From an uncultured Pseudomonadota bacterium (GTDB lineage Bacteria > UBA10199 > JADFYH01), in contig CAYLKF010000001.1 in the NCBI GenBank assembly GCA_964384365.1, positions 124,163 through 188,162 of the forward strand: a DNA stretch of 64,000 nucleotides, read 5' to 3'. Shown piece by piece: positions 8,255-35,077 of this stretch (positions within the stretch are counted from its first letter, which is position 1; every line of letters begins with the position of its first letter). Made by a program: the position numbers and the translations under genes. Under the pieces are notes generated by a model. That model was not told the origin of the DNA. It made no database searches and worked only from the letters and a program-made list of their open reading frames with translations.

Positions 8255-8857
8255 TTAATTACGAGCAGTAATCTCGCTTCGAAGATACGTCGTAATAGGA
8301 AAGCGACATTCACTCAATACAGTGTCGAGCCCCTTCAAATCTTGGCTACTAAAAGCTAAATGAACCGAATTAGAACTACGAGGGGCATTAAACATCCGAA
8401 GCCCCCACACTGTTGGAACTGCCCTTGCACTTGCGGGTGGAGGAGTAATCCCGCTGAGGTATTCTAAAAAACCGTAGACCACAAAGAAATTATCTACATC
8501 TAGTGAAGTATCAATGGCAAAGGGTGTCCCATCATTAAAAAGAACACTTGCGTGCGGTAAAGCAGCAACGAGACTTTGAAAAGCTGCGTCCCTCGTCAAC
8601 TCATTTGGACGACTTCTATTTGCAGTCACTTTTCCGACAACCGCCCTATACTGCGCAAGATCCGCTGTTAGACTCGGAAATCCCATGGGGCGGAGTCTGC
8701 CTGTAAAGTCTTCACAAGACTCACCAGAATGCCTCAAAAAATTATCTCTCGGAAGAGGTGGCGGTGGCCGATCTACCGGACGAGGCATGGGAGGAGGAGA
8801 ACGAAAAAAATCGCATCCGATTGCACCCGCTGCGATTAACAAAAGAAGAGGCCACAT
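8255..8857 (-). CDS. Putative lipoprotein with a proline-rich N-terminal linker
   Basis: Signal peptide plus lipobox (LLLIAAGAIGC) followed by PPPMPRPVDRPPPPLP. It lies immediately upstream of the 437-aa ORF in the same orientation. Confidence 0.4.
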   Translation of the reverse strand: MWPLLLLIAAGAIGCDFFRSPPPMPRPVDRPPPPLPRDNFLRHSGESCEDFTGRLRPMGFPSLTADLAQYRAVVGKVTANRSRPNELTRDAAFQSLVAALPHASVLFNDGTPFAIDTSLDVDNFFVVYGFLEYLSGITPPPASARAVPTVWGLRMFNAPRSSNSVHLAFSSQDLKGLDTVLSECRFPITTYLRSEITARN

Positions 8858-11353: not shown

Positions 11354-12726
<1,373 letters not shown>

Positions 12727-22190: not shown

Positions 22191-23681
22191 ATGCCCACAC
22201 TAAAACTAAAAAAAATTGGGATCGATACCTATAAAGAAAATGTCGTCTACATGCCTCGCTATTGTGAGATTTGTCGCAGCCAAGGTTTTCAAGCTCTCTC
22301 TAAAATTAAAGTGCACTGGAAAAATAAAAGCTTACTAGCCACCCTCAACATGACCGAAAATGGGCTTCTAGGCTCCGGAGAAATCGGGTTATCTCATATT
22401 GCTTTTGAGAGGCTTGGAGCTCCCGAAGGAGCTGAAATCTCGATTTCTCATCCTAATCCTTTGCAATCGACCGATTATATCCGTGAAAAATTAGACGGGA
22501 AAATTTTTAATAAAGCTGAACTCCGAGAAATCATCCACGATATTCTTTCTTTCCGCTACTCAAACATCGAGCTCACTGCCTTTGTAACGGCCTGCACCAT
22601 GGAACGCTTAACCGAAGCTGAAATCCTTTCTTTAACAGAAGCTATGGTAGAGACTGGAGAAACAATCGATTGGGAACAACCCTTGGTACTCGACAAACAT
22701 TGCATCGGTGGAATTCCCGGAAACCGCACCACGATGATTGTCGTCCCCATTATAGCCGCTCATGGCCTCCCCATTCCAAAAACTTCTTCGCGGGCCATCA
22801 CCTCTCCTGCCGGCACAGCCGATACAATGGAATCACTCTGTAATGTTTCGCTCAGCTTAAACGAAATGAAAGAGATGGTCGCTCGTGAACACGCTTGCAT
22901 CGCTTGGGGTGGGGCTCTTGCCTTGGCGCCAGTCGACGATATTCTCATTTCGGTGGAGCGCGCGCTCAATATCGATTCTGAGGGTCAGATGGTGGCCTCG
23001 ATTCTTTCAAAGAAAAAAGCAGCAGGCTCTACACACGTACTCCTCGATATTCCGATAGGCCCTACAGCCAAGGTAAAATCGCTCCATTATGCAAGGCGCC
23101 TCAAATTACTCTTCGAAAAAATAGGCAGAAAAATTGGGCTCAAGATCAAAGTTGTTTTCACTCAAGGCATAGAGCCCATCGGAAACGGCATTGGGCCAAG
23201 CTTAGAGGCAGAAGACGTGTTGAAAGTTTTGAATTTAGATCCAAGTGCCCCGGAAGATTTGCAAAAAAAATCTCTCTTGCTCGCTGGAGAACTTTTTGAG
23301 CTCTCCGGAAAAGTGAAAAAAGGGAAAGGCTTGCCACTGGCCAAAGATTTGCTTTTTTCTCGCGAAGCTCTACACAAATTCAACGCCATCTTGAAAAGTC
23401 AGGGAAATACAAAAACACTTACACGCGCAGCTCATACCCATGATTTTCCAAGCCCTCAAACAGGAAAAGTCACTCGCATTCACAATCTCAAGATCGCTAA
23501 AGTGGCAAAACTGGCAGGCGCTCCTCAAGATCATCGTGCGGGCGTTTTGCTTCATCACAAAACAGGAAGCCTGATAAAAAAAGGGGAAGCTCTCTTCACT
23601 ATTTACGCCGAAACTTCAGAAGAACTACACTTTGCCAGCCAATACGCCTATGAAAACCCCGATCTCTACCTCATCCGCTAA
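22191..23681 (+). CDS. Thymidine/AMP phosphorylase-like protein (archaeal-type 'putative thymidine phosphorylase', glycosyltransferase family 3)
   Basis: About 500 aa. The HCIGGIPGNRTT...SSRAITSPAGTADTME motif matches the pyrimidine-nucleoside phosphorylase phosphate/nucleoside-binding region. The N-terminal extension is typical of AMP-phosphorylase homologues. Confidence 0.7.
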   Translation: MPTLKLKKIGIDTYKENVVYMPRYCEICRSQGFQALSKIKVHWKNKSLLATLNMTENGLLGSGEIGLSHIAFERLGAPEGAEISISHPNPLQSTDYIREKLDGKIFNKAELREIIHDILSFRYSNIELTAFVTACTMERLTEAEILSLTEAMVETGETIDWEQPLVLDKHCIGGIPGNRTTMIVVPIIAAHGLPIPKTSSRAITSPAGTADTMESLCNVSLSLNEMKEMVAREHACIAWGGALALAPVDDILISVERALNIDSEGQMVASILSKKKAAGSTHVLLDIPIGPTAKVKSLHYARRLKLLFEKIGRKIGLKIKVVFTQGIEPIGNGIGPSLEAEDVLKVLNLDPSAPEDLQKKSLLLAGELFELSGKVKKGKGLPLAKDLLFSREALHKFNAILKSQGNTKTLTRAAHTHDFPSPQTGKVTRIHNLKIAKVAKLAGAPQDHRAGVLLHHKTGSLIKKGEALFTIYAETSEELHFASQYAYENPDLYLIR

Positions 23682-24858
23682 ACCTTTATTCCGATTACCT
23701 AAAAATGTTTACCTTTTAGGTTTTTTTAGTTTTTTCAACGATCTCACCAGCGATATGATTGGCCCTCTACTTCCTGTTTTTTTGGCAAGCATGGGCTATG
23801 GTGCTGAATTTCTAGGTTTGATGGAAGGAGTTGCCAACGCTCTTTCAAACATCACCAAATTACTCGCCGGCTGGAAGGCCGATCAACTCGGCAGAAGTAA
23901 AAACATCACTATTTTTGGTTATGCCCTCTGTGCTTTTATTCGCCCTCTTTTCGCAATTGCGCATCCGTTCTTCACTTTTACCGCTCGAGTTGTCGATCGT
24001 CTCGGTAAGGGCATTCGCACGGCTCCACGCGATCATCTTTTAACCGCGCACCTCGATCGAAAGTATTGGGGACGAGCTTTTGGGCTTCAACGCACCATGG
24101 ATCATGCGGGATCCTTCTTAGCTCCGTTACTAGCCACTTTGCTGCTCACTATTTTTTCTCTCAAGTTAAGCCATCTTTTTTTAATTGCCAGTATCCCTTC
24201 AATCTTGGCGGTCTTGTTTTTATCGAAACGCCTTACCGAAGCCCCGGCTCCTCTTGAGAAAAAATTTGAAAAGCTCTCCTGGAAAACATTACCCAGGCCT
24301 CTCAAGTATTATGTGGGGGTCATTTTCTTAGCTGCCCTTTCTACCCCCTCTGAACTTTTTCTCATTCTTAAGCTTCAAGAAACAGGGCTTCACATTTCAT
24401 ACACGCCGCTGGTTTGGCTCACCTTTACCGCTTTTGCTATGCTTGCGGCCTTCGCCGGGGGCTATCTGGCAGATCGTTGGAAAGTCACTTCAACTATCGC
24501 GCTCGGCTGGAGCTTGTTTGCGCTGTGCTATCTAGGGTTTGCGTTTAGTTATTCTCTCATGGGTTGTTGGATTCTCGTCGCAATCTTTGGTTTTCAAAAT
24601 GGTTTGGTCGAGGCGGGAGAACGGAGCTTGCCTGCCACCATTGTTTCAAGCCATAAACGTGCCACGGCTTTGGGTTGGTATTACTTTGCTTATGGATTGG
24701 GAGGGCTCCCGGCTTCGCTTCTTTTCGGAATTTTATGGAAGATGTATGGTTCTCAGGTGAGCTTTATTGTGTATGCGTTTCTCACGCTTTTGAGTGTTGG
24801 CCTAATTCTAAAGCTTCCCATAACAAACGCCTCAGAAAAAAAGCCGGAGCCAAACTAG
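23650..24858 (+). CDS. MFS transporter
   Basis: 12 predicted TM segments and MFS loop motifs (GKLSD-like DRLGKG). The start is uncertain; the ORF-track start is 23632. Confidence 0.7.
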   Translation: MKTPISTSSAKPLFRLPKNVYLLGFFSFFNDLTSDMIGPLLPVFLASMGYGAEFLGLMEGVANALSNITKLLAGWKADQLGRSKNITIFGYALCAFIRPLFAIAHPFFTFTARVVDRLGKGIRTAPRDHLLTAHLDRKYWGRAFGLQRTMDHAGSFLAPLLATLLLTIFSLKLSHLFLIASIPSILAVLFLSKRLTEAPAPLEKKFEKLSWKTLPRPLKYYVGVIFLAALSTPSELFLILKLQETGLHISYTPLVWLTFTAFAMLAAFAGGYLADRWKVTSTIALGWSLFALCYLGFAFSYSLMGCWILVAIFGFQNGLVEAGERSLPATIVSSHKRATALGWYYFAYGLGGLPASLLFGILWKMYGSQVSFIVYAFLTLLSVGLILKLPITNASEKKPEPN

Positions 24859-25888: not shown

Positions 25889-28366
25889 TTACTTCACCAC
25901 TAAATTCAAGATTTTGCCGGGAACATGAATTACTTTTACAAGCTGTTTATTTTCGAGTTGAGCACTCACCCGCGAATCGGCAAAGGCTAAGCGCTTCAAC
26001 TCTTCTTCGGAGGTGCCAAGGGCCACTTCAAGATTAGCCCTCACCTTTCCATTCACTTGCACCACAATTCGCTGGGTATCGCTCAGCAAAGCTTGGGTAT
26101 CATATTGAGGCCAAGCCTGCTCCGATGCCCTCCCCTCTTTTTTCAGAGCCCCCCATACTTCTTCGGCAAAATGAGGGGTAAAGGGAGAGAGCATAATCAC
26201 CAGCTGAGAAATCAAGCCAGCCACTTCATTTCCTTCTGGAGTGCTTTGAGCAGAAGCTTTTGATTTTGAAAAGAAATCTTGCAGAGCATTGACCAATTCC
26301 ATAATCGCTGCAATCGCCGTATTAAATTGAAAGCGATCAAGATCATCCCCTACTTTTTTTAAAGTTTGATGGAATTTACGCTGCAAATTTTTCAAGTCTT
26401 CGGGAGCCGCATTGAAGCAAAACTTCTTTTCGATCCAAGGCTGAATCAAATTCCAGAGTCGATTTAAAAAACGGTAAGAACCCTCAACCCCTTGATCGTT
26501 CCAATCGAGATCTTTCTCCGGAGGAGCGGCAAAGAGCGAAAAAAGACGAGCGGTATCGGCCCCATACTTCTCAATAAGATAGTTGGGGTCAACGACATTC
26601 CCCTTCGATTTACTCATCTTCGCGCCATCTTTAATGACCATTCCTTGAGTGAGTAAATGCGCAAAAGGCTCTGAAATTTTTACATAAGATAAATCGCGCA
26701 AGACCTTGGTATAAAAGCGAGAATAAAGAAGATGTAAAACGGCGTGCTCGATACCACCAATGTATTGATCCACTCCATCCGGACTCATCCAATAATCGAC
26801 GGCTTTCGAATCAAAGGGCCCTTTGTCAAAATGAGGGGAACAATAGCGCAAAAAATACCAGGAAGATTCCATGAAGGTATCCATGGTATCGGTTTCGCGC
26901 TTTGCGGCTCCATGGCAAGTCGGGCAAGTCACATTCACAAAATCGGAGATCTTCGCCAAAGGAGACCCGCCCTCTCCGGTAAAAGGAACATCCAACGGCA
27001 AAGCCACGGGCAAATCTTTTTCGGGTACAGGCACCGTGCCACACTTCTCACAGTAAATAATGGGAATCGGGCTACCCCAATAACGTTGCCGCGAAATACC
27101 CCAGTCTCTGAGTTTGTAAGTAACTTTCGCAGACCCAACTTTTTTCTCTTCTAAAAATTTGACGATGGCCGTTTTGGCATCTTCGCTGGCGAGTCCATCA
27201 AATTGAGCACTGTGAACCATGATGCCAGGATCGACGTAGGCTTTGGAGGGCGTAGCGAGCGGCGCCCCTACGGGTTGGATGACCTCTTTGATAGGAATCT
27301 GATATTTTTTTGCGAAATCGAAATCGCGTTGATCGTGTGCCGGAACTGCCATCACGGCGCCAGTTCCGTATTCCATCAAAACAAAATTTGCCGCATAAAC
27401 TGGAATTTTTTCGCCGGTGAGAGGATGCTCGGCATAAAATCCTAAGAAGAGCCCTTCTTTTTCGTAATCTTCTGAGAGGCGTTTCTCGCGTTCAATCTTT
27501 TTGTTTCGCTCACGCAATGCTTGCAGGGCCTGGCGGATTTTTTCATCTTGAACGAGCTGATCGACGAGCGGATGATTGAGAGCGAGAGAGAGAAAAGTTA
27601 CGCCATACAAAGTATCGGGGCGTGTGGTAAAAACTTCAATGACCTCTTTTGAATTTTCGATGGAGAAACGAATGGTGGCTCCTATGCTTTTTCCAATCCA
27701 CTCGCGCTGCATCACTAAAACCTTTTCGGGCCAGCCTTTGAGCTTAAACGTATCTTGCAAGAGCTCTTCGGCATAGGCCGTAATTTTAAAAAACCATTGT
27801 TCTAAAGGTTTTTGAATGACTTTGCTCTCACAACGCCAGCAAGCTCCCTGCTCTACTTGTTCATTGGCCAAAACCGTTTGGCATTTTTCGCACCAGTTAA
27901 CGGTAGAATGTTTGCGATAAGCTAAGCCCTTTTTAAACATCTCGGTAAAAATCTTTTGTTCCCAACGATAATACTCCGGATCGCAGGTAGCCACTTCGCG
28001 GTTCCAATCATAAGAAAAACCCATTTTTTTGAGCTGCTCGCGCATCGAGGCAATATTCGATTTTGTCCAGGCAGCCGGATGGGTTTTGTTTTGAATCGCC
28101 GCATTTTCAGCGGGCATTCCGAAGGCATCCCATCCCATCGGATGCAACACATTAAAACCCCGCATGCGCTTAAAACGTGCCACCACATCGCCAATCGTGT
28201 AATTGCGCACATGCCCCATATGAATACGACCCGAAGGGTAAGGAAACATCTCCAAAAGATAATATTTGGGCTTTGAAGGGGCTTCTTCGGCCTTAAAACT
28301 TTGATGTTCTTGCCAATAGTTTTGCCACTTGGGCTCAATGGTTTTGGGGTTGTAGAGTTCTGTCAT
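25889..28366 (-). CDS. leuS: Leucyl-tRNA synthetase
   Basis: [11 protein letters not shown] (HIGH motif), KMSKS and a full 825-aa class Ia architecture. Confidence 0.95.
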
Positions 28367-28505
28367 GTTCGACTTTTACACTAGAGTTTTTTAAGATGTC
28401 TAGAAGTTAGTCAAAAACATGACAAAGGGAAAAAAGATGATCAAGATCTCTTATGCCCAGGGTATGAAAAAACAAAAACCATCCCAAATTTAGATGGCTT
28501 TTAAA

Positions 28506-29363
28506 TTATTCCGAAGGTCTGCTATTCGGCAATTTCCATTCTTCCTCATGAAGCGTCCAGCCTCCACGCATTGCGACACTGTGAGGCTGATCGCTTTCAG
28601 TTTCATAAAATAGCTGCCAGCCCAATGGAAAATCAGAATAATCTGAATATTTTTCATTATTAGAAGGTCTATTTGCCCAAGCTTGCAGCAAAAGCTCCCT
28701 AGGATTCTCTATCTCAAAACCAAGATTTTCTCTGTACCGACAACGGAGCCCGGAGTACACGCTATAAAGTTGTGCCATCCCATATCCAATACTCTGTCCT
28801 TCTTCTCTACTCCAATCAAATCTCAGAGGATCACGCGCTGCTACTTGCAATCGTCCTTGAAGCACTGCAAATCCTTCTCGGACTATAGTTCGCATTAGAT
28901 CGTAACGACGATCAACTATCGACCTGTCATGTCTCGTCTCAGACTCAATCACAAGACCCGTCGCTTGAAGATCATATTCGGTAGGTAAAAGTCGTATTAA
29001 ATCGAGAATATCTAAAGCATTCAATGATTGAGGGTTAGAACGAAGTCTAGCGATTCCCTCTTCAACGGAATGAAAGCACCTTCCGTAATAACGCATAAGG
29101 GCTATTTGCAACCGATCATTCAACATTCGTCCGGCAGGGAAACTATTGATGATTTGCCGTGCCCGTTCAGCCAATCCTGGAACACCATCAGGAGGCAATA
29201 AACCAGAATCAAAGGGTAAATCACCGCTAGCAACTCGCTCTATAATTCCTATATCCCTTTGTAGAGAAGCAAAGTTTGTAAAAGAAAAACGCCCGCCCCT
29301 ATAAATGTTTATCCCAGTGCTCTGCCAAATATCTTGGACAAGTTGATCTCGTGCATTAACCAT
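28506..29363 (-). CDS. Orphan Arg-rich hypothetical protein
   Basis: 285-aa ORF with no recognised motif. Its upstream leader contains a G8 tract (29575–29582) and a 44-codon ORF in another frame. Confidence 0.4.
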   Translation of the reverse strand: MVNARDQLVQDIWQSTGINIYRGGRFSFTNFASLQRDIGIIERVASGDLPFDSGLLPPDGVPGLAERARQIINSFPAGRMLNDRLQIALMRYYGRCFHSVEEGIARLRSNPQSLNALDILDLIRLLPTEYDLQATGLVIESETRHDRSIVDRRYDLMRTIVREGFAVLQGRLQVAARDPLRFDWSREEGQSIGYGMAQLYSVYSGLRCRYRENLGFEIENPRELLLQAWANRPSNNEKYSDYSDFPLGWQLFYETESDQPHSVAMRGGWTLHEEEWKLPNSRPSE

Positions 29364-29776
29364 CTGGCCATTAACACGACTAGTCTCTCTTACCCCATCT
29401 GGACATAAAAATTGAACCTCGTCTCCGGCATCCAGAAGCCCTCGCCTCGCCCCTCCCCTGGCCGATCTACAATACTATATTCTCTTCCCCCCACATTGAT
29501 TCGGCGGAATTGATTGCTACTCATAAAGATCTCCTAAACAAATAAAGTTCTGCCCCACTGTCTTTATTATCGGCGGGGGGGGTGAGGTTGCTTATTTTTT
29601 TTGAGGAAGTTGGGACTTAAAGATTAAAAATGAAAAGAAGTGAATGGTTTTGTATAAATTGAGAAGATTTTGACACAATGCATTAGCAGGACTCAAGCAC
29701 TGACACAAAATCACCCTGGATACAGGATACAAAATTCATCTTGCCCATTTTTACTTTATTCCCCTATTATAAAGCA

Positions 29777-30031
29777 ATGGTGCAACTGAATCTTAAACTC
29801 TCGATACCTGAATCCCTAGCAAAGGAAGCAAAAACAGTTGGGCTTTTAAAACCTAAAAGCATCATTAAACTGCTGCGTTCTGAACTCAAATCCAGAAGAA
29901 AAACGAATTTTTTTAAAACTCTTGAAAAACTTTCGTCTCTCAAAATCCCTGCCCTTTCTCCCCAGGAAATTGAAGAAGAAATTCAAAAAGTTCGTGAAGA
30001 AAAAAAACGATATTCCAAAAAGTGTTCTTGA
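29777..30031 (+). CDS. Putative antitoxin for the downstream PIN toxin
   Basis: Small basic/acidic protein (MVQLNLKLSIPESLAKEAK...) immediately upstream of and overlapping a PIN-domain gene. Start chosen at M13 of the track ORF. Confidence 0.45.
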   Translation: MVQLNLKLSIPESLAKEAKTVGLLKPKSIIKLLRSELKSRRKTNFFKTLEKLSSLKIPALSPQEIEEEIQKVREEKKRYSKKCS

Positions 30032-30431
30032 TACCAACATCCTCATTTCCTCTTTCTTCTGGAAAGGCGATCCACGGCGGATTCTTTCGTTCGCTTATAA
30101 AAATAAACTCCAAATTTTTACCAGCCCTGTTCTTTTGTTAGAACTTGAAGAAGTCTTAAACCGACCCAAATTTATTTCATTTTTACAGAATGCACACGTA
30201 ACCCCTCACAACTTAATCATGGATTACGCACAACTGGCGACAGTTGTCACACCCGAGCACATCCCTTCTGTCGTGACACAGGATCCTGATGATAATGAAG
30301 TAGTTGCCTGCGCTCTTGCTTCAAAAGCGGACTTGATCATTTCAGGAGATTCCGATCTGTTAAGTCTCCGAAAGTATGAAAATATACCGATACTTTCTCC
30401 AAAAGAATTCATACGGTGGTTCAAATCATAG
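29994..30431 (+). CDS. PIN-domain toxin (TIGR00305-like PIN family)
   Basis: VLDTNILISSFF...DPDDNEVVACALASKADLIISGDSDLL shows the conserved acidic residues of PIN nucleases. The likely start is GTG 29994 or TTG 29970, overlapping the antitoxin gene. Confidence 0.75.
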   Translation: MKKKNDIPKSVLDTNILISSFFWKGDPRRILSFAYKNKLQIFTSPVLLLELEEVLNRPKFISFLQNAHVTPHNLIMDYAQLATVVTPEHIPSVVTQDPDDNEVVACALASKADLIISGDSDLLSLRKYENIPILSPKEFIRWFKS

Positions 30432-30437
30432 ACTTGC

Positions 30438-30634
30438 TTAATCGATAGAACGACGGATTCTCGCAAACTCATCCATCACTTTATGTGCATCCGCTTGGGT
30501 TTTACGATAGTAATTCTTCAACTTTCGAAGTGCTATTTTCCTTCTGAGATTTTTATTAAAATCGGTAATGATTTGACAGATAGACTTCCATGCAGAGTAA
30601 TTTTGTTCTCCCATTAATTTATTTTTTCTTAACA
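30438..30634 (-). CDS. Small hypothetical basic protein (about 60 aa)
   Basis: Open frame continuing past the end of the DUF4442 gene (MLRKNKLMGEQNYSAWKSICQ...). No homology is recognisable. Confidence 0.25.
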
Positions 30635-31071
30635 TAGACAGTCCTCTGAATCGAAGCATGAACCACATTTTGAGAATCCACAAAATCAATGGGATAAACG
30701 CGAAGAGTGGAGGGTTTTGTTTCGAGTTCTTTTTTGATTTCCTCAACTTCTTGCTGACCCAATTGAATGGTCGCATATAAAGTGGAAGTTCCCGGTTTTT
30801 TATACGAAATACTCCCTTCTTTATCCCACACAATATAACCCCGCCCTAAAAGCTTGATCAGCATCACGACGTGGATTCCATCGACTGCTGAAAATAGGCA
30901 GCCTCCAAAAATTGTTTTTACATAATTTCGGGTTTTCCAATTTAAAGGAAGTTTCAATCGCACTTCGTGGAGATCGTCCGAAAAATAAGTAAAACGCGCG
31001 CCCGTGCGACGAAAAACAGGAAAAAAATTAAAAGCCCAGCGTTGGAGTTTTGTCTTAAATGATTCAGGCAT
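30619..31071 (-). CDS. DUF4442-like hotdog-fold protein
   Basis: The FFPVFRRTGARFTYFSDDLHEVRLKLPLNWKTRNYVKTIFGG pattern resembles the YiiD C-terminal/DUF4442 thioesterase-like family. Confidence 0.5.
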   Translation of the reverse strand: MPESFKTKLQRWAFNFFPVFRRTGARFTYFSDDLHEVRLKLPLNWKTRNYVKTIFGGCLFSAVDGIHVVMLIKLLGRGYIVWDKEGSISYKKPGTSTLYATIQLGQQEVEEIKKELETKPSTLRVYPIDFVDSQNVVHASIQRTVYVKKK

Positions 31072-31318
31072 GGTGGATTAATCAGCTATGCAAATAAAAA
31101 GCGTGTAGATGGGGGCACCGTTCCAAACTACACGCCTTAGGACTACATCTTTTTGTTTAAGCTCACCACCGCAGAACCCAAGGACAGAGGCTTTGGGGTT
31201 TCTCCCCTGTCCTTTAAAGTCTGCAGCACTCACTCCACCCCGAAACTAATTTTTTTATGAATGGGAACCATTCTGGCCTACAAAGGACAAGCTGAAGTGT
31301 CAACAAATTTTTGTACAA

Positions 31319-31768
31319 TTATTTGGGTGGGCTTTTATTCTCCACGCGAATCCACAAATCTTCTCCCTCCCTCTCAACTGGAAAAACTCGAGCTTTGAGC
31401 GCCCTTCCCACATGGCCGCATTTTCCAATTTTTACACAACGGCCATCTCGAATATCGAAACGCCAATTATGGGAATTACACATCACCACATAGGGAGAAA
31501 TTAATTTACTTTTAGAAAGCGGGTAATCGGCATGCGGACAAGCGTCTTTAATCGCATAAAATTCATCGCCCGTTCGAAAAAGGGCAATCGTAAAACGATC
31601 AAGAAAAAAAGTACGAGCACGGCCAGGCTCAAGCTCTGAAACCTTGCCACCATAAATACGGCCGTTGAGGATCGGCGCCCGTTTGGCCTTGGGAATATAA
31701 TCCACGCCAAAAGCTCCATGGCCAAGTAAAATGTCTTCTTGCGGATCTTTTTTTTTCTTTTCTACCAT
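31319..31768 (-). CDS. Rieske [2Fe-2S] domain protein (NirD-like)
   Basis: CPHADYPLS and CNSHNWRF (CxH...CxxH) cluster ligands. Confidence 0.75.
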   Translation of the reverse strand: MVEKKKKDPQEDILLGHGAFGVDYIPKAKRAPILNGRIYGGKVSELEPGRARTFFLDRFTIALFRTGDEFYAIKDACPHADYPLSKSKLISPYVVMCNSHNWRFDIRDGRCVKIGKCGHVGRALKARVFPVEREGEDLWIRVENKSPPK

Positions 31769-31814
31769 ACTTGACTCTCGAAACCAGACGATTTATGGGG
31801 TCTAAAAGGATACG

Positions 31815-31948
31815 TAATGGGTCAGCGTTTTTGATTGAGCGAAAAAGCACCGAATCTATCGATTATAAAAGTAATATCTTTTCGAAATTACTTCAAAAAT
31901 TTTCCTTACGGTGCGTTTTTTCGCGAAAGAAAAAATGCTGACCCATTA
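31815..31948 (+). repeat. Copy C of the 134-bp TIR element; it contains the spurious upstream ATG of the bolA ORF
   Basis: TAATGGGTCAGC ... GCTGACCCATTA termini are identical to copy A. The core is about 85% identical to copies A and B. Confidence 0.6.
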
Positions 31949-31961
31949 TGCGAATAATAAC

Positions 31962-32213
31962 ATGCCAGTAAACCCAAGTGAAATTCAACAATTGATTGAA
32001 AAGGCCCTACCCGGTGCCCAAGTGAAAATCGAAGATTTAGTGGGCGATGGCGATCATTTGCAAGCCACCGTCGTTGCCTCTCAATTTGAAGGGAAAACCC
32101 TTTTACAGCAGCACCAGCTGGTTTATGCCGCTTTACGCGAAACCTTAAAAGAACGATTACATGCTTTAGCTTTAAAAACTTACAGTCCATCGGACTCCGC
32201 GCGCCAGACATAA
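31962..32213 (+). CDS. bolA: BolA-family protein
   Basis: The VKIEDLVGDGDHLQATVVASQFEGKTLLQQHQLVY motif fits BolA. The start is moved to the ATG after the repeat element. Confidence 0.75.
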   Translation: MPVNPSEIQQLIEKALPGAQVKIEDLVGDGDHLQATVVASQFEGKTLLQQHQLVYAALRETLKERLHALALKTYSPSDSARQT

Positions 32214-32288
32214 AGTCTGGCGCTTGACCAAAGGGAGAGAGTTCCTCTTCTCCCCTTTGGAAACCCCATCGGTATAAGGAGAAAATAC

Positions 32289-32600
32289 ATGAATGATATT
32301 CAAAATAAAATTAGTGACGTGATTAAAAACAATAAAGTGGTAATTTTCATGAAAGGAAATCCCGATTCTCCAATGTGTGGTTTCTCCGCTCAGGCCATTC
32401 AAGCTTTAAGAGCAGCAGGCGCTAATCCAGTAGGGATCGATGTTTTAGCCGATCCGAATGTTCGCCAAGGAATCAAAGATTTCACTCAATGGCCCACCAT
32501 CCCTCAAATTTTCATTAATGGGGAATTCGTAGGGGGCTGCGATATCATCACTGAAATGGCTCAACGCGGTGAGCTGAAAAAGCTCATCGAAGCTGCCTAA
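32289..32600 (+). CDS. grxD: Monothiol glutaredoxin Grx4/GrxD
   Basis: CGFS active site (PMCGFSAQA) and a 103-aa Grx fold. It forms the classic BolA–Grx pair. Confidence 0.9.
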   Translation: MNDIQNKISDVIKNNKVVIFMKGNPDSPMCGFSAQAIQALRAAGANPVGIDVLADPNVRQGIKDFTQWPTIPQIFINGEFVGGCDIITEMAQRGELKKLIEAA

Positions 32601-32602
32601 AC

Positions 32603-33247
32603 CTAGCGAATCACCTGCTCGAAGAGTTTTAAAATTTGCTCGCGCCTTTCCAAAATTGCTTCTTCGCTTAAAGGATTTTTCTGAAAAATGTCGCCCATCG
32701 TGTGCGCATGCGAAAAGTAGAACGAAATCGCCCCCATAAAGCTGATAATCAGATGCCCGGGTTTTAAATCTAAACTTAAAACCCCCGTTTTCTGAGCTTG
32801 GAGCACCAAATTTTCCATCTGAAAATAGAGAGGCCCTCGAATATCTTTCCATAAACTTCGCGACATCTTTCCGCCTTCCAAGCCATCCCAAACCAGCAAG
32901 CGAAGAAAAAGCTGGTGACTCGCCATGAAATCATGAAAAATTTGAATTGCCTCGAGCAATAAAGCCCTCTCTTCAAAACGGCCCCCTCTTTTTTCGGCCG
33001 CCTCACTTAAAGCCTTTCCAAACCAAGCACCCAGCTCTTGCCATCCTTCAAAATGGACGGCTTTGTAGAGATCTCGCTTATTCCCAAAATAATGGTAGAT
33101 CATCCGTTTATTGACCTTAGCCTTCTTTAAAATCTCTTCCAAGGTAGTGCCGTGGAAACCCGCTTTAGCAAAGCACTGGGTGGCATAACTTAAGATATTT
33201 GCACGGGTTTTTTCAGGATCCCGCTTCATTTCTTTCTTTTTAGGCAA
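32603..33247 (-). CDS. TetR-family transcriptional regulator
   Basis: N-terminal HTH (ILSYATQCFAKAGFHGTTLEEILKKAKVNKRMIYHYFGNKRDLY). Confidence 0.85.
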   Translation of the reverse strand: MPKKKEMKRDPEKTRANILSYATQCFAKAGFHGTTLEEILKKAKVNKRMIYHYFGNKRDLYKAVHFEGWQELGAWFGKALSEAAEKRGGRFEERALLLEAIQIFHDFMASHQLFLRLLVWDGLEGGKMSRSLWKDIRGPLYFQMENLVLQAQKTGVLSLDLKPGHLIISFMGAISFYFSHAHTMGDIFQKNPLSEEAILERREQILKLFEQVIR

Positions 33248-33264
33248 TGGTTCCCCCTATAAAA

Positions 33265-33335
33265 AGTAACCAAATAGTTACTTATTTATTGACTTTTATT
33301 TCTAAAACTCTATATTAGTAACCATATGGTTACTA
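33265..33335. promoter_or_regulatory. Two palindromic operators plus a sigma70-like promoter in the tetR / hydroxylase divergent region
   Basis: AGTAAC-caaata-GTTACT (33265–33282) and TAGTAACC-atat-GGTTACTA (33316–33335, overlapping the hydroxylase ATG). TTGACT-16 nt-TATATT (33289–33316) lies between them. Confidence 0.6.
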
Positions 33336-33934
33336 ATACTATTCAAAACCCCAACCCAGCACAAGAAAAACCCTTTTTTCTTTTACGACGCGTCGCGCAC
33401 CCACTCACTCCAACTTTTATATTTGGAATTCTTGCATTCGGGATCACCTTCATTTCTTTACACTTTCACCCTCGTTCTCTCTTATCGACTCTTGCCCTTT
33501 TAAGCTTGGGAGTAATTTTCTGGACTCCCACCGAATATGTTTTACACCGTTTTGTTTTTCATCTGACTCAAGTAAAAGAGCCTTGGAAAACGATGGCCTC
33601 TGGCCTTCATATGGCACATCACCGAAATGTTCAAACTCAAGATTTAATCATCGCTCCTCCGGGAGTAGCTGTGATCTTCTCGACTCTTATTTATCTTTTT
33701 TCACTTCTCTTTACCCAAAGCTTTGCAATCTCTGCCCTTTTAATTAGCGGACTTTTTATCGGTTACATTTTCTATGAATGGGCCCATTTCTCCGCGCACC
33801 GCTATCATCCCAAAAATAAGATTGCCGCCTATTTAAAACAGTATCATCTGATGCACCATTTCAAATATCCGAATCGAGTTTTTGGAGTAACCAATCCTTT
33901 TTGGGATTGGATCTTTGGAACTTATTCCAAGTAA
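33326..33934 (+). CDS. Fatty-acid hydroxylase / sterol-desaturase superfamily membrane enzyme
   Basis: Histidine boxes HRFVFH, HMAHHRN and HLMHHFKYP in a 4-TM protein. Confidence 0.75.
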   Translation: MVTNTIQNPNPAQEKPFFLLRRVAHPLTPTFIFGILAFGITFISLHFHPRSLLSTLALLSLGVIFWTPTEYVLHRFVFHLTQVKEPWKTMASGLHMAHHRNVQTQDLIIAPPGVAVIFSTLIYLFSLLFTQSFAISALLISGLFIGYIFYEWAHFSAHRYHPKNKIAAYLKQYHLMHHFKYPNRVFGVTNPFWDWIFGTYSK

Positions 33935-34214
33935 GATTAGCTTTTTCTAAAAAAAACCGTCCGAAATCAAGACTCAAGATCGAACGCTCTGTTCGAAAAT
34001 CGAACTCTTTCTATCTGCTCGCGCAGGTTTTCTGAAGCTCTTCCTCCCATTTTTTGATTAATTGTAACCCCGTGGCTTGCCACGGAGACACCTTATACAA
34101 TGGGGTTTTCAAAGGGGTCCGCCTGAGGCGGACGCCCTTTGGTTAAGCACGGGGTTTCATACCCCGTGTGCGAAGTCCGATTCATTGGCACAGTTACTGC
34201 ATTGTATTCTTTTC
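33935..34214. repeat. Highly structured intergenic region with at least 3 perfect hairpins, including the REP-like core GTCCGCCTGAGGCGGAC
   Basis: CCGTGG-cttg-CCACGG, GTCCGCC-tgag-GCGGAC and CACGGGGT-ttcat-ACCCCGTG. The core TCCGCCTGAGGCGGA recurs at 37145–37159. Confidence 0.5.
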
Positions 34215-34931
34215 ATGAATACACAAAACATTCCTAAAAAAAACTTAAGAGAAATTTCCACCCCTCTTCCATTCAAGGCTAAGGCTTTGGAAAAACCCTC
34301 CTGCTTGCCAGATCAAACGAAGTACGAACCCAGATTACATCGGCTTGAAAAAAGAAAAGAGCCTTCTGAGCTTTCTCTGGAGCATCTTTCTCAAGCTCCT
34401 GAAAATCAGTCACTCTGGCAAAGATCGGGAAACTTTCTAAAAGGTGCCTTAATCGAAGGCCCTACTGAAATGATTTCAGGATTCATCCACCTCACCCCCG
34501 CACATCATCTTATTGAGCACGCTCAAAAAGAATGGAAAGAACCTGGCTATCACCAGAAACTTTTTCAAACTCAAGAAGGAAGACAAAGCCTTTTTAGAGA
34601 GCAAATTCTAAGCACACCCGGCGTGGAGCCTTTAATAGGGCTCACTCATGTGGTGCTACATCCTGTAGCGACAGCAAAAGAAGTGAAAGAACATTACAAA
34701 CAAGAATGGAAAACTGATGAAGGTAAAGGAAAAATTACTTTTGAACTGGCAAGCACTTTACTTCCTCTTCTCAAGGTTTCAAAAGTTGGGGATTTTTTAA
34801 AAATAAGCACTCTGGGAAAAACTTCTTTAAAAACCGCGAATAAAAATATTCTCAAAAACGTTGGAACCGAGGCTTTAAAGGGCCTGACAAACTTGGGCGA
34901 AAAAGAGTTCAAAACGGATCCTGATCACTAA
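34215..34931 (+). CDS. Hypothetical protein
   Basis: About 238 aa, starting at the ATG after the hairpin cluster. The ORF-track N-terminal extension merely translates the hairpins. Confidence 0.35.
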   Translation: MNTQNIPKKNLREISTPLPFKAKALEKPSCLPDQTKYEPRLHRLEKRKEPSELSLEHLSQAPENQSLWQRSGNFLKGALIEGPTEMISGFIHLTPAHHLIEHAQKEWKEPGYHQKLFQTQEGRQSLFREQILSTPGVEPLIGLTHVVLHPVATAKEVKEHYKQEWKTDEGKGKITFELASTLLPLLKVSKVGDFLKISTLGKTSLKTANKNILKNVGTEALKGLTNLGEKEFKTDPDH

Positions 34932-35077
34932 GCAAAATCGGGGTCCAATCGAAAAACCACCTCAAAAAAAAACGAAGATAAAGATTAATTTTAAGGGCTC
35001 AATTCGCCAATCTCTAAAGATAAAGCACTGAAATTTTTCCTAGCTAATCATGCTGAGCTTTTCTATAGGAAGAAGCG

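Follow-up and report, generated by a model that had tools for sequence, protein, structure and literature searches.

A lysine-poor orphan gene with an offset 5' reading frame in a replaceable chromosomal slot of an uncultured bacterium

Is a 285-amino-acid (aa) protein without recognisable relatives, preceded in another frame by a short open reading frame (ORF) and by several runs of G, the product of a switchable gene, of a decaying gene or of a whole one? This question is raised by a locus on the minus strand of contig CAYLKF010000001.1 (assembly GCA_964384365.1) from an uncultured member of the Pseudomonadota; the stretch analysed, called here the window, comprises 64,000 nucleotides (nt), and positions refer to it unless stated otherwise. 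A preliminary description had proposed a possible phase-variable or decaying accessory gene, a pseudogene or an assembly error being further options. The gene, referred to as the orphan in the following, would appear to be an ordinary accessory gene which was probably broken in its reading frame recently, and phase variation of its coding region is not supported.

The arrangement itself, a 285-aa ORF with a 44-codon ORF upstream in a different frame, was found as described previously (Table 1). The upstream ORF (leader), whose translation is MSSNQFRRINVGGREYSIVDRPGEGRGEGFWMPETRFNFYVQMG, lies one base ahead of the main frame, which is reached from it by a -1 shift. Above its first ATG the main frame is indeed open, the length being 37 codons and not 34; the chance probability of 37 open codons is about 0.2. 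Over 82 nt (29393-29474) both frames are open together, and a change of +1 nt (or -2 nt) inside this interval would be needed for their fusion. A single added nucleotide there would yield one ORF of about 339 aa, with a junction peptide such as ...GEGLLDAGDEVQF..., and this ORF would possess proper start signals, i.e., ATG 29524 with AGGAG 6 nt before it. The start codon of the annotated protein, ATG 29363, is placed 26 nt past the stop codon of the leader, and no Shine-Dalgarno sequence comparable to that of the leader precedes it. Directly 3' of the orphan stop codon a terminator-like hairpin is found; given this hairpin, the orphan is, as judged from sequence, a transcription unit of its own. 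A 15-nt direct repeat, TTwATGkCCAGATGG (minus strand), was noticed at 29360-29374 and 29395-29409, the copies being 35 nt apart. It places Met43 of the leader and Met1 of the main ORF in the same context and is probably due to chance, being one of 11 comparable repeat families within 2.4 kb.

The main frame is coding. With codon log-odds for which 42 long window ORFs served as the training set it scored +0.049 per codon, and the remaining five frames -0.21 to -0.75; the genes of the window scored 0.152 +/- 0.049 in frame, with a mean of -0.37 in the off-frames. Since the in-frame score lies above that of the other frames but below that of the window genes, the frame is coding and its codon usage atypical. 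The GC content at third codon positions (GC3) is 0.32, compared with 0.42 for the window, and CGC, although the commonest arginine codon of the window, does not occur in the orphan at all.

An even chance may be given to the explanation that the orphan is a lineage- or strain-specific gene of about 339 aa which was broken by one ordinary insertion or deletion (indel) near its 5' end. The original frame would have started at ATG 29524, behind AGGAG, and would have ended at the stop codon at 28506. A one-base offset somewhere in 29393-29474, an ordinary indel in a G-rich, non-hypermutable stretch, would now stop translation after 44 codons; the first 15% of the gene, approximately, would be out of frame, and the 3' 84% would survive as the annotated 285-aa ORF. 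In its original form the gene probably began with the leader ORF; the two ORFs would once have been one, and the break would be inactivating. Besides the restoration of a single ORF with proper start signals by one indel, the composition of the leader is consistent with this explanation, since it resembles that of the main ORF, with no lysine (P 0.045) and six arginines in 44 residues (P 0.012). If the indel was an ordinary one, the locus would be a young pseudogene, or else a gene which is weakly expressed by re-initiation at ATG 29363.

Several points weigh against such a break. The G-rich DNA renders every frame of the overlap rich in arginine and glycine, which weakens the argument from leader composition; about a third of the window genes have no clear Shine-Dalgarno sequence, so that little can be concluded from the lack of one at ATG 29363; beyond the offset, 285 codons follow without a further lesion, which would fit a functional arrangement of two ORFs equally well. 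Furthermore, no homologue is available and hence no intact longer version which could show the ancestral frame, and the N-terminal 83 residues of the modelled fused protein have values below 50 in the predicted local distance difference test (pLDDT). The orphan is comparable to young frameshifted pseudogenes in strain-specific islets in its single indel-type offset near the 5' end, in the intactness of the rest of the ORF and of its expression signals, and in its position in a swap-prone slot beside a toxin-antitoxin module. Unlike proven frameshifted pseudogenes it has no intact orthologue, so that the call is drawn from intrinsic signals alone. The earlier suggestion of a decaying gene is thus plausible, though unproven: one offset at the 5' end speaks for it, whereas the remaining 285 codons, the ribosome-binding site and the terminator are intact.

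The main rival of a broken gene, although itself unlikely, is a native two-cistron layout in which nothing is broken and a 44-aa leader peptide, translated with the help of the strong ribosome-binding site AGGAG, is followed by the 285-aa protein through re-initiation at ATG 29363. The intact state of the 285-codon ORF, promoter region and terminator would suit such a layout, as would the recovery of the same sequence from two assemblies and the fact that the helical core which was modelled with confidence (fused-protein residues 84-310) falls wholly inside the 285-aa ORF; however, ATG 29363 has no Shine-Dalgarno sequence, a distance of 26 nt is far for coupling, and upstream of the ATG the main frame continues without a stop for 37 codons, with a leader which is likewise lysine-free and arginine-rich. 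Also against this layout, the same ATG is contained in a local hairpin of modest strength (about -11 to -13 kcal/mol), although its stability is no greater than that of shuffled sequence. Phase-variable control, by slippage in a run of eight C (C8) which alters promoter spacing or by slippage in short G runs which restores or breaks the frame, is very unlikely. Contingency loci carry poly-G/C tracts, for example in the promoters of Neisseria porA and opc and in coding regions of Campylobacter and Haemophilus, and the orphan is similar to these in its accessory nature, in the homopolymer which lies in the presumed spacer of its promoter, in the G runs near the coding 5' end and in its two overlapping frames. 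The G6 run and the tract GGGGAGGGG were located as had been reported, and so was the homopolymer of eight, in both position and length; on the coding strand, however, the latter is C8 and not G8. It sits 51-58 nt upstream of the leader ATG, inside the 17-nt spacer between the -35-like TAAGCA and the -10-like GATAAT of a hand-picked promoter candidate; this candidate fits just 8 of 12 consensus positions, is below the scan threshold and was not reported by the consensus scan. It had also been proposed that a slip of one base in a G tract would fuse the frames. This holds for one G added to any G3 or G4 run in 29393-29474, where the complete set of runs consists of G4 at 29455-29458, G4 at 29450-29453, G3 at 29439-29441, T5 at 29407-29411 and G4 at 29393-29396. 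It does not hold for G6, since the main-frame TAG (29475-29477) lies downstream of it; a slip in either direction meets a stop, and the frames stay unfused. Runs of three or four G are not hypermutable, and among the runs in 29393-29474 (only G3, G4 and T5) there is no hypermutable tract at a frame-fusing position. Lengths and frequency of G/C tracts are at chance level: in the 64 kb, one run of at least 8 was observed vs 1.35 expected, and 17 runs of at least 6 vs 21 expected (first-order Markov model). Tandem Repeats Finder reported neither repeat arrays near the gene nor a general enrichment of simple repeats in the window. Tract lengths are equal in the NCBI-derived window and in the Logan contig of SRR8893623, a de Bruijn contig which crosses every tract unbroken; the locus is missing from the sister genomes. 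Thus, unlike contingency loci, the orphan has frame-switching runs of just 3-4 G, a longer G6 which is cut off by a stop, a tract frequency at chance and no length variation between two assemblies, and the proposal of a phase-variable gene is not supported for the coding region; for C8, a switch of promoter spacing would be conceivable, though improbable. A G-quadruplex was also judged unlikely by hand reading, because just three G runs are within range.

Ranked next is a programmed -1 frameshift at U UUU U (29407-29411) or G GGG UAA (29390-29396), which would give a regulated low yield of full-length protein. The shift needed is indeed -1, and after slipping back by one base, tRNA-Phe (on UUU) and tRNA-Gly (on GGG) could both pair again without mismatch, GGG being followed by a stop; "shifty stops" are a general mechanism which would apply to such slip sites. 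In dnaX and in the transposases of the IS3 family, as here, overlapping frames are related by -1 and the ribosome-binding site belongs to the upstream ORF, but in contrast to these the orphan lacks a slippery heptamer (hand reading of the overlap showed no X XXY YYZ, and single-tRNA slip sites only) and a stimulatory hairpin or pseudoknot downstream, the folding z-scores being -1.07, +0.15, +0.84 and -0.61 relative to shuffled sequence. In addition, summed codon scores place the switch of frames, weakly, a short way 3' of GGGGAGGGG, at about 29437-29440 (between GEGRGEG and LLDAGDEV), and this earlier switch is preferred to one at the leader stop codon by about 3.3 nats. Still lower in rank, and highly improbable, is an error of sequencing or assembly, the gene being intact in the organism. 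The break does lie within a G-rich stretch of low complexity, and a common set of reads may underlie both the NCBI and the Logan assembly; against an error, Logan contig SRR8893623_15038 (7,606 bp) is 100% identical to window 26534-34139, without gaps and with all tracts included, and the genes common to the window and a sister genome (15 of 15, about 15 kb) align over their full length in a single frame. The identity of the contigs and the 15 intact shared genes together make the assembly error which had been considered unlikely. Longer G/C7 runs occur within long ORFs that stay open, and the Dus gene, which matched its Pfam model end to end, holds two of these runs; five further overlapping ORF pairs in the window are not split genes, and neither the fused protein nor the 44-aa peptide has a copy on record in the protein collections searched. 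The least probable alternative is that there is no gene and that a chance ORF arose in intergenic, recently acquired DNA. A homologue was found nowhere and the codons are atypical, as would be expected of such an ORF, but a stretch of 322 open codons would arise by chance with a probability of about 1e-6 per position, the in-frame codon score is well apart from those of the other five frames, a single-sequence model shows a confident helical core, and the unit is bracketed by a ribosome-binding site and a terminator.

For annotation, the recorded 285-aa protein should probably be regarded as what is left, after truncation, of a gene of about 339 aa, or as its downstream cistron, and the locus should not be listed as phase-variable.

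The absence of a recognisable domain, as noted earlier, was borne out by comparisons with Pfam, NCBIfam, PHROGs, PADLOC and PDB sequences, none of which matched the orphan. No homologue was found among about 15 billion proteins. A word-indexed search of 5.8 billion clusters retrieved only the orphan protein itself, in a cluster of one member; exhaustive phmmer with 1.84 billion representatives yielded the orphan and one spurious match, a fish Ig-repeat protein (P0002), which was rejected because its score was summed over repeats and inflated. No relative of the orphan was detected by tblastn in plasmids and phages, or by peptide-pattern scans of GTDB genomes, JGI metagenomes and IMG/VR. Single-sequence AlphaFold2 modelling of the fused 339-aa protein gave a predicted template modelling score of 0.58, with residues 84-310 all-helical and mostly at pLDDT 70-90; the product is, according to this model, probably a folded helical-bundle protein. 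When the model was compared with PDB and BFVD by Foldseek, only generic helical repeats were obtained (best E 0.07, template modelling score about 0.2). By composition the protein is soluble and acidic, with a grand average of hydropathy of -0.50 and an isoelectric point of 5.4.

The view of the orphan as an accessory gene, which was part of the preliminary description, was strengthened by comparison with sister genomes. In one of these (L081; JGI metagenome 3300013121, contig Ga0172278_1663) the flanking genes show 85-90% DNA identity, and the slot is flanked by leuS and a DUF4442 gene with a hotdog fold. Between these genes the window carries a segment of 2.2 kb which contains the orphan and a PIN toxin-antitoxin pair, in which the antitoxin-like ORF of 84 aa (29777-30031) overlaps that of the 145-aa PIN toxin (29994-30431); in L081 it is replaced by 1.5 kb with a different orphan, P0010, of 431 aa. 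A third organism (L091) possesses a copy of P0010 with 71% identity beside its DUF4442 gene; in L081 and L091 alike, another gene takes the place of the 2.2-kb segment. That the orphan is an accessory gene in a replaceable chromosomal slot is supported by these alignments, and it is a clean example of a strain-specific gene in such a position. The window as a whole consists of ordinary chromosomal DNA from an aerobic bacterium, with leuS, holA, purA, serA, argG, alternative complex III and caa3 oxidase. Among 80 LeuS-anchored loci (the best being 65% identical and thus too distant for synteny) none contained a relative of the orphan, and a metagenome scan anchored on the DUF4442 gene produced no further close relatives.

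The two orphans of the slot show no sequence similarity to each other (E 0.32). A resemblance between the N-terminus of the leader, INVGGRE, and KIAGRE of P0010 was rejected, since 162 of 5000 shuffled sequences scored as well; P0011 and P0012 gave no signal. P0010 has the conserved motifs IHTLAxxGHG and GQxxLxACSNGxGG. In GHG...ACSNG a possible Cys/His dyad of a clan-CD protease might be read; the model of P0010 matched only generic Rossmann-like folds. Between the promoter region of the orphan and the start of the antitoxin a small hairpin is followed by a T-rich tail (window 29712-29729, minus strand); it could be a terminator or an operator of the toxin-antitoxin pair.

Table 1. Positions of the features of the orphan locus and of its counterpart in the sister genomes; window coordinates unless a genome is named
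Feature	Position	Strand	Remarks
Orphan ORF body, 285 aa, annotated	28506..29363	minus	frame analysis
Open codons of the same frame above the ATG, 37	29364..29474	minus	no ATG, GTG or TTG
Closing stop of the main frame, TAG	29475-29477	minus	sequence
Leader ORF, 44 codons, MSSNQFRRINVGGREYSIVDRPGEGRGEG...	29390..29524	minus	one base ahead of the main frame
Interval open in leader and main frames, 82 nt overlap	29393..29474	minus	sequence
Shine-Dalgarno sequence AGGAG	29531..29535	minus	6 nt before leader ATG 29524
Tract GGGGAGGGG	29450..29458	minus	in G-rich stretch encoding PGEGRGEG
G6 tract inside the leader ORF	29487..29492	minus	5' of the TAG which closes the main frame
C8 on the coding strand (G8 on the plus strand)	29575..29582	minus	longest G/C run in the window
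Promoter candidate, hand-picked	29566..29602	minus	A8 29595-29602, TAAGCA 29589-29594, GATAAT 29566-29571
Terminator-like hairpin and T run, 12-pair stem, tail TTTTTTCATA	28473..28503	minus	begins 3 nt past the orphan stop
Variable segment relative to L081, 2.2 kb	28404..30612		homology breaks at 28403 and 30613 (L081 11941 and 10459)
Divergent toxin-antitoxin pair	29777..30431	plus	positions transferred from genes called on the Logan contig
P0010	L081 10474-11769	minus	relatives at L091 122-1369 and L082 8001-9773

The composition of the orphan is unusual in its basic residues. Its description as arginine-rich was correct: 31 of the 285 residues are arginine (10.9%, compared with 4.4% in the pooled proteins of the window; P about 4e-6). 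Lysine, on the other hand, occurs twice only (0.7% vs 6.8%; P about 5e-7), at residues 238 and 277, which leaves a lysine-free stretch of 237 aa (83% of the ORF), or of 291 aa in the fused model. The catalytic A chains of AB toxins are lysine-poor. In the definition of Szulc et al. (2023, PMC10665810), a lysine desert is a region which contains no lysine over 150 aa or more without interruption, or over 50% or more of the sequence, and the orphan falls within this definition. From the position-specific base frequencies of the gene itself a lysine content of 3.4% would be predicted. As an explanation of the scarcity of lysine, which is shared with P0010, a recent import from a donor of high GC content fits poorly, because the GC3 of the orphan is below that of the host.

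P0010, the orphan in the slot of the sister genome, is also lysine-poor and arginine-rich (4 lysines and 37 arginines in 431 residues), whereas the other 18 genes of L081 encode 2.8-12.7% lysine. Thus, two unrelated orphans of the same slot in sister genomes are nearly free of lysine, in proteomes with otherwise about 7%. This bias, in a helical and arginine-rich protein whose slot holds a similarly composed orphan elsewhere, is the sole hint at a function. In a distant relative of P0010 (P0012), whose locus has 57% GC, 21 of 590 residues are lysine; they align with varied residues, and a conservative replacement of lysine by arginine in this family was therefore rejected. A further lysine-poor, arginine-rich orphan was noticed in the window at 8255-8857 (minus strand). 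It encodes 200 aa with 2 lysines and 17 arginines, has no Pfam match and carries a lipoprotein-like signal, MWPLLLLIAAGAIGC.

With lysine-desert proteins and AB-toxin A chains the orphan shares solubility, a long lysine-free stretch and a large excess of arginine over lysine; unlike these, it has no link to lysine tagging, no secretion signal and no toxin domain that could be found, and its host looks like a free-living aerobe, with biosynthesis of amino acids and purines, alternative complex III and caa3 oxidase. No ubiquitin- or Pup-related family was among the families named for the ORFs scanned, which were part of those in the window. It is conceivable, although doubtful, that the orphan is one of a class of accessory proteins which avoid lysine, perhaps effector- or toxin-like cargo rather than junk, and which are swapped through the leuS/DUF4442 slot. 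If so, lysine avoidance would let such proteins escape lysine-directed modification, be it tagging of the ubiquitin or Pup type, ubiquitination by a host after export, or acylation. Should the scarcity of lysine reflect selection, it would point to a lysine-directed process in this uncultured lineage which has not been recognised so far.

Comparison of the window with L081 showed other differences. In L081 (9049-10000) the Rieske and DUF4442 genes have between them a gene for a leucine carboxyl methyltransferase of 300 aa, which is missing at window 31072-31091. A second variable spot is found at window 34077-34949, corresponding to L081 4439-6049, where two orphans (184 aa and 349 aa) are encoded in L081; the 284-aa ORF of the window at this place matches only residues 1-233 of the 349-aa protein, with 77% identity. 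At window 23632-24858 (plus strand) an ORF for a transporter of the major facilitator superfamily (408 aa) is present. For the homologous region of L081 (15491-16587) just a 79-aa antisense gene was called, and the transporter gene may therefore be disrupted there. Finally, the serA-purA intergenic region of the window (12632-12726, minus strand) contains inverted heptad arrays, (AGGTTTA)x4 and (CCTTATA)x5, between the stop codon of serA and the likely purA start, ATG 12632; formation of a long imperfect hairpin by these arrays would be possible.

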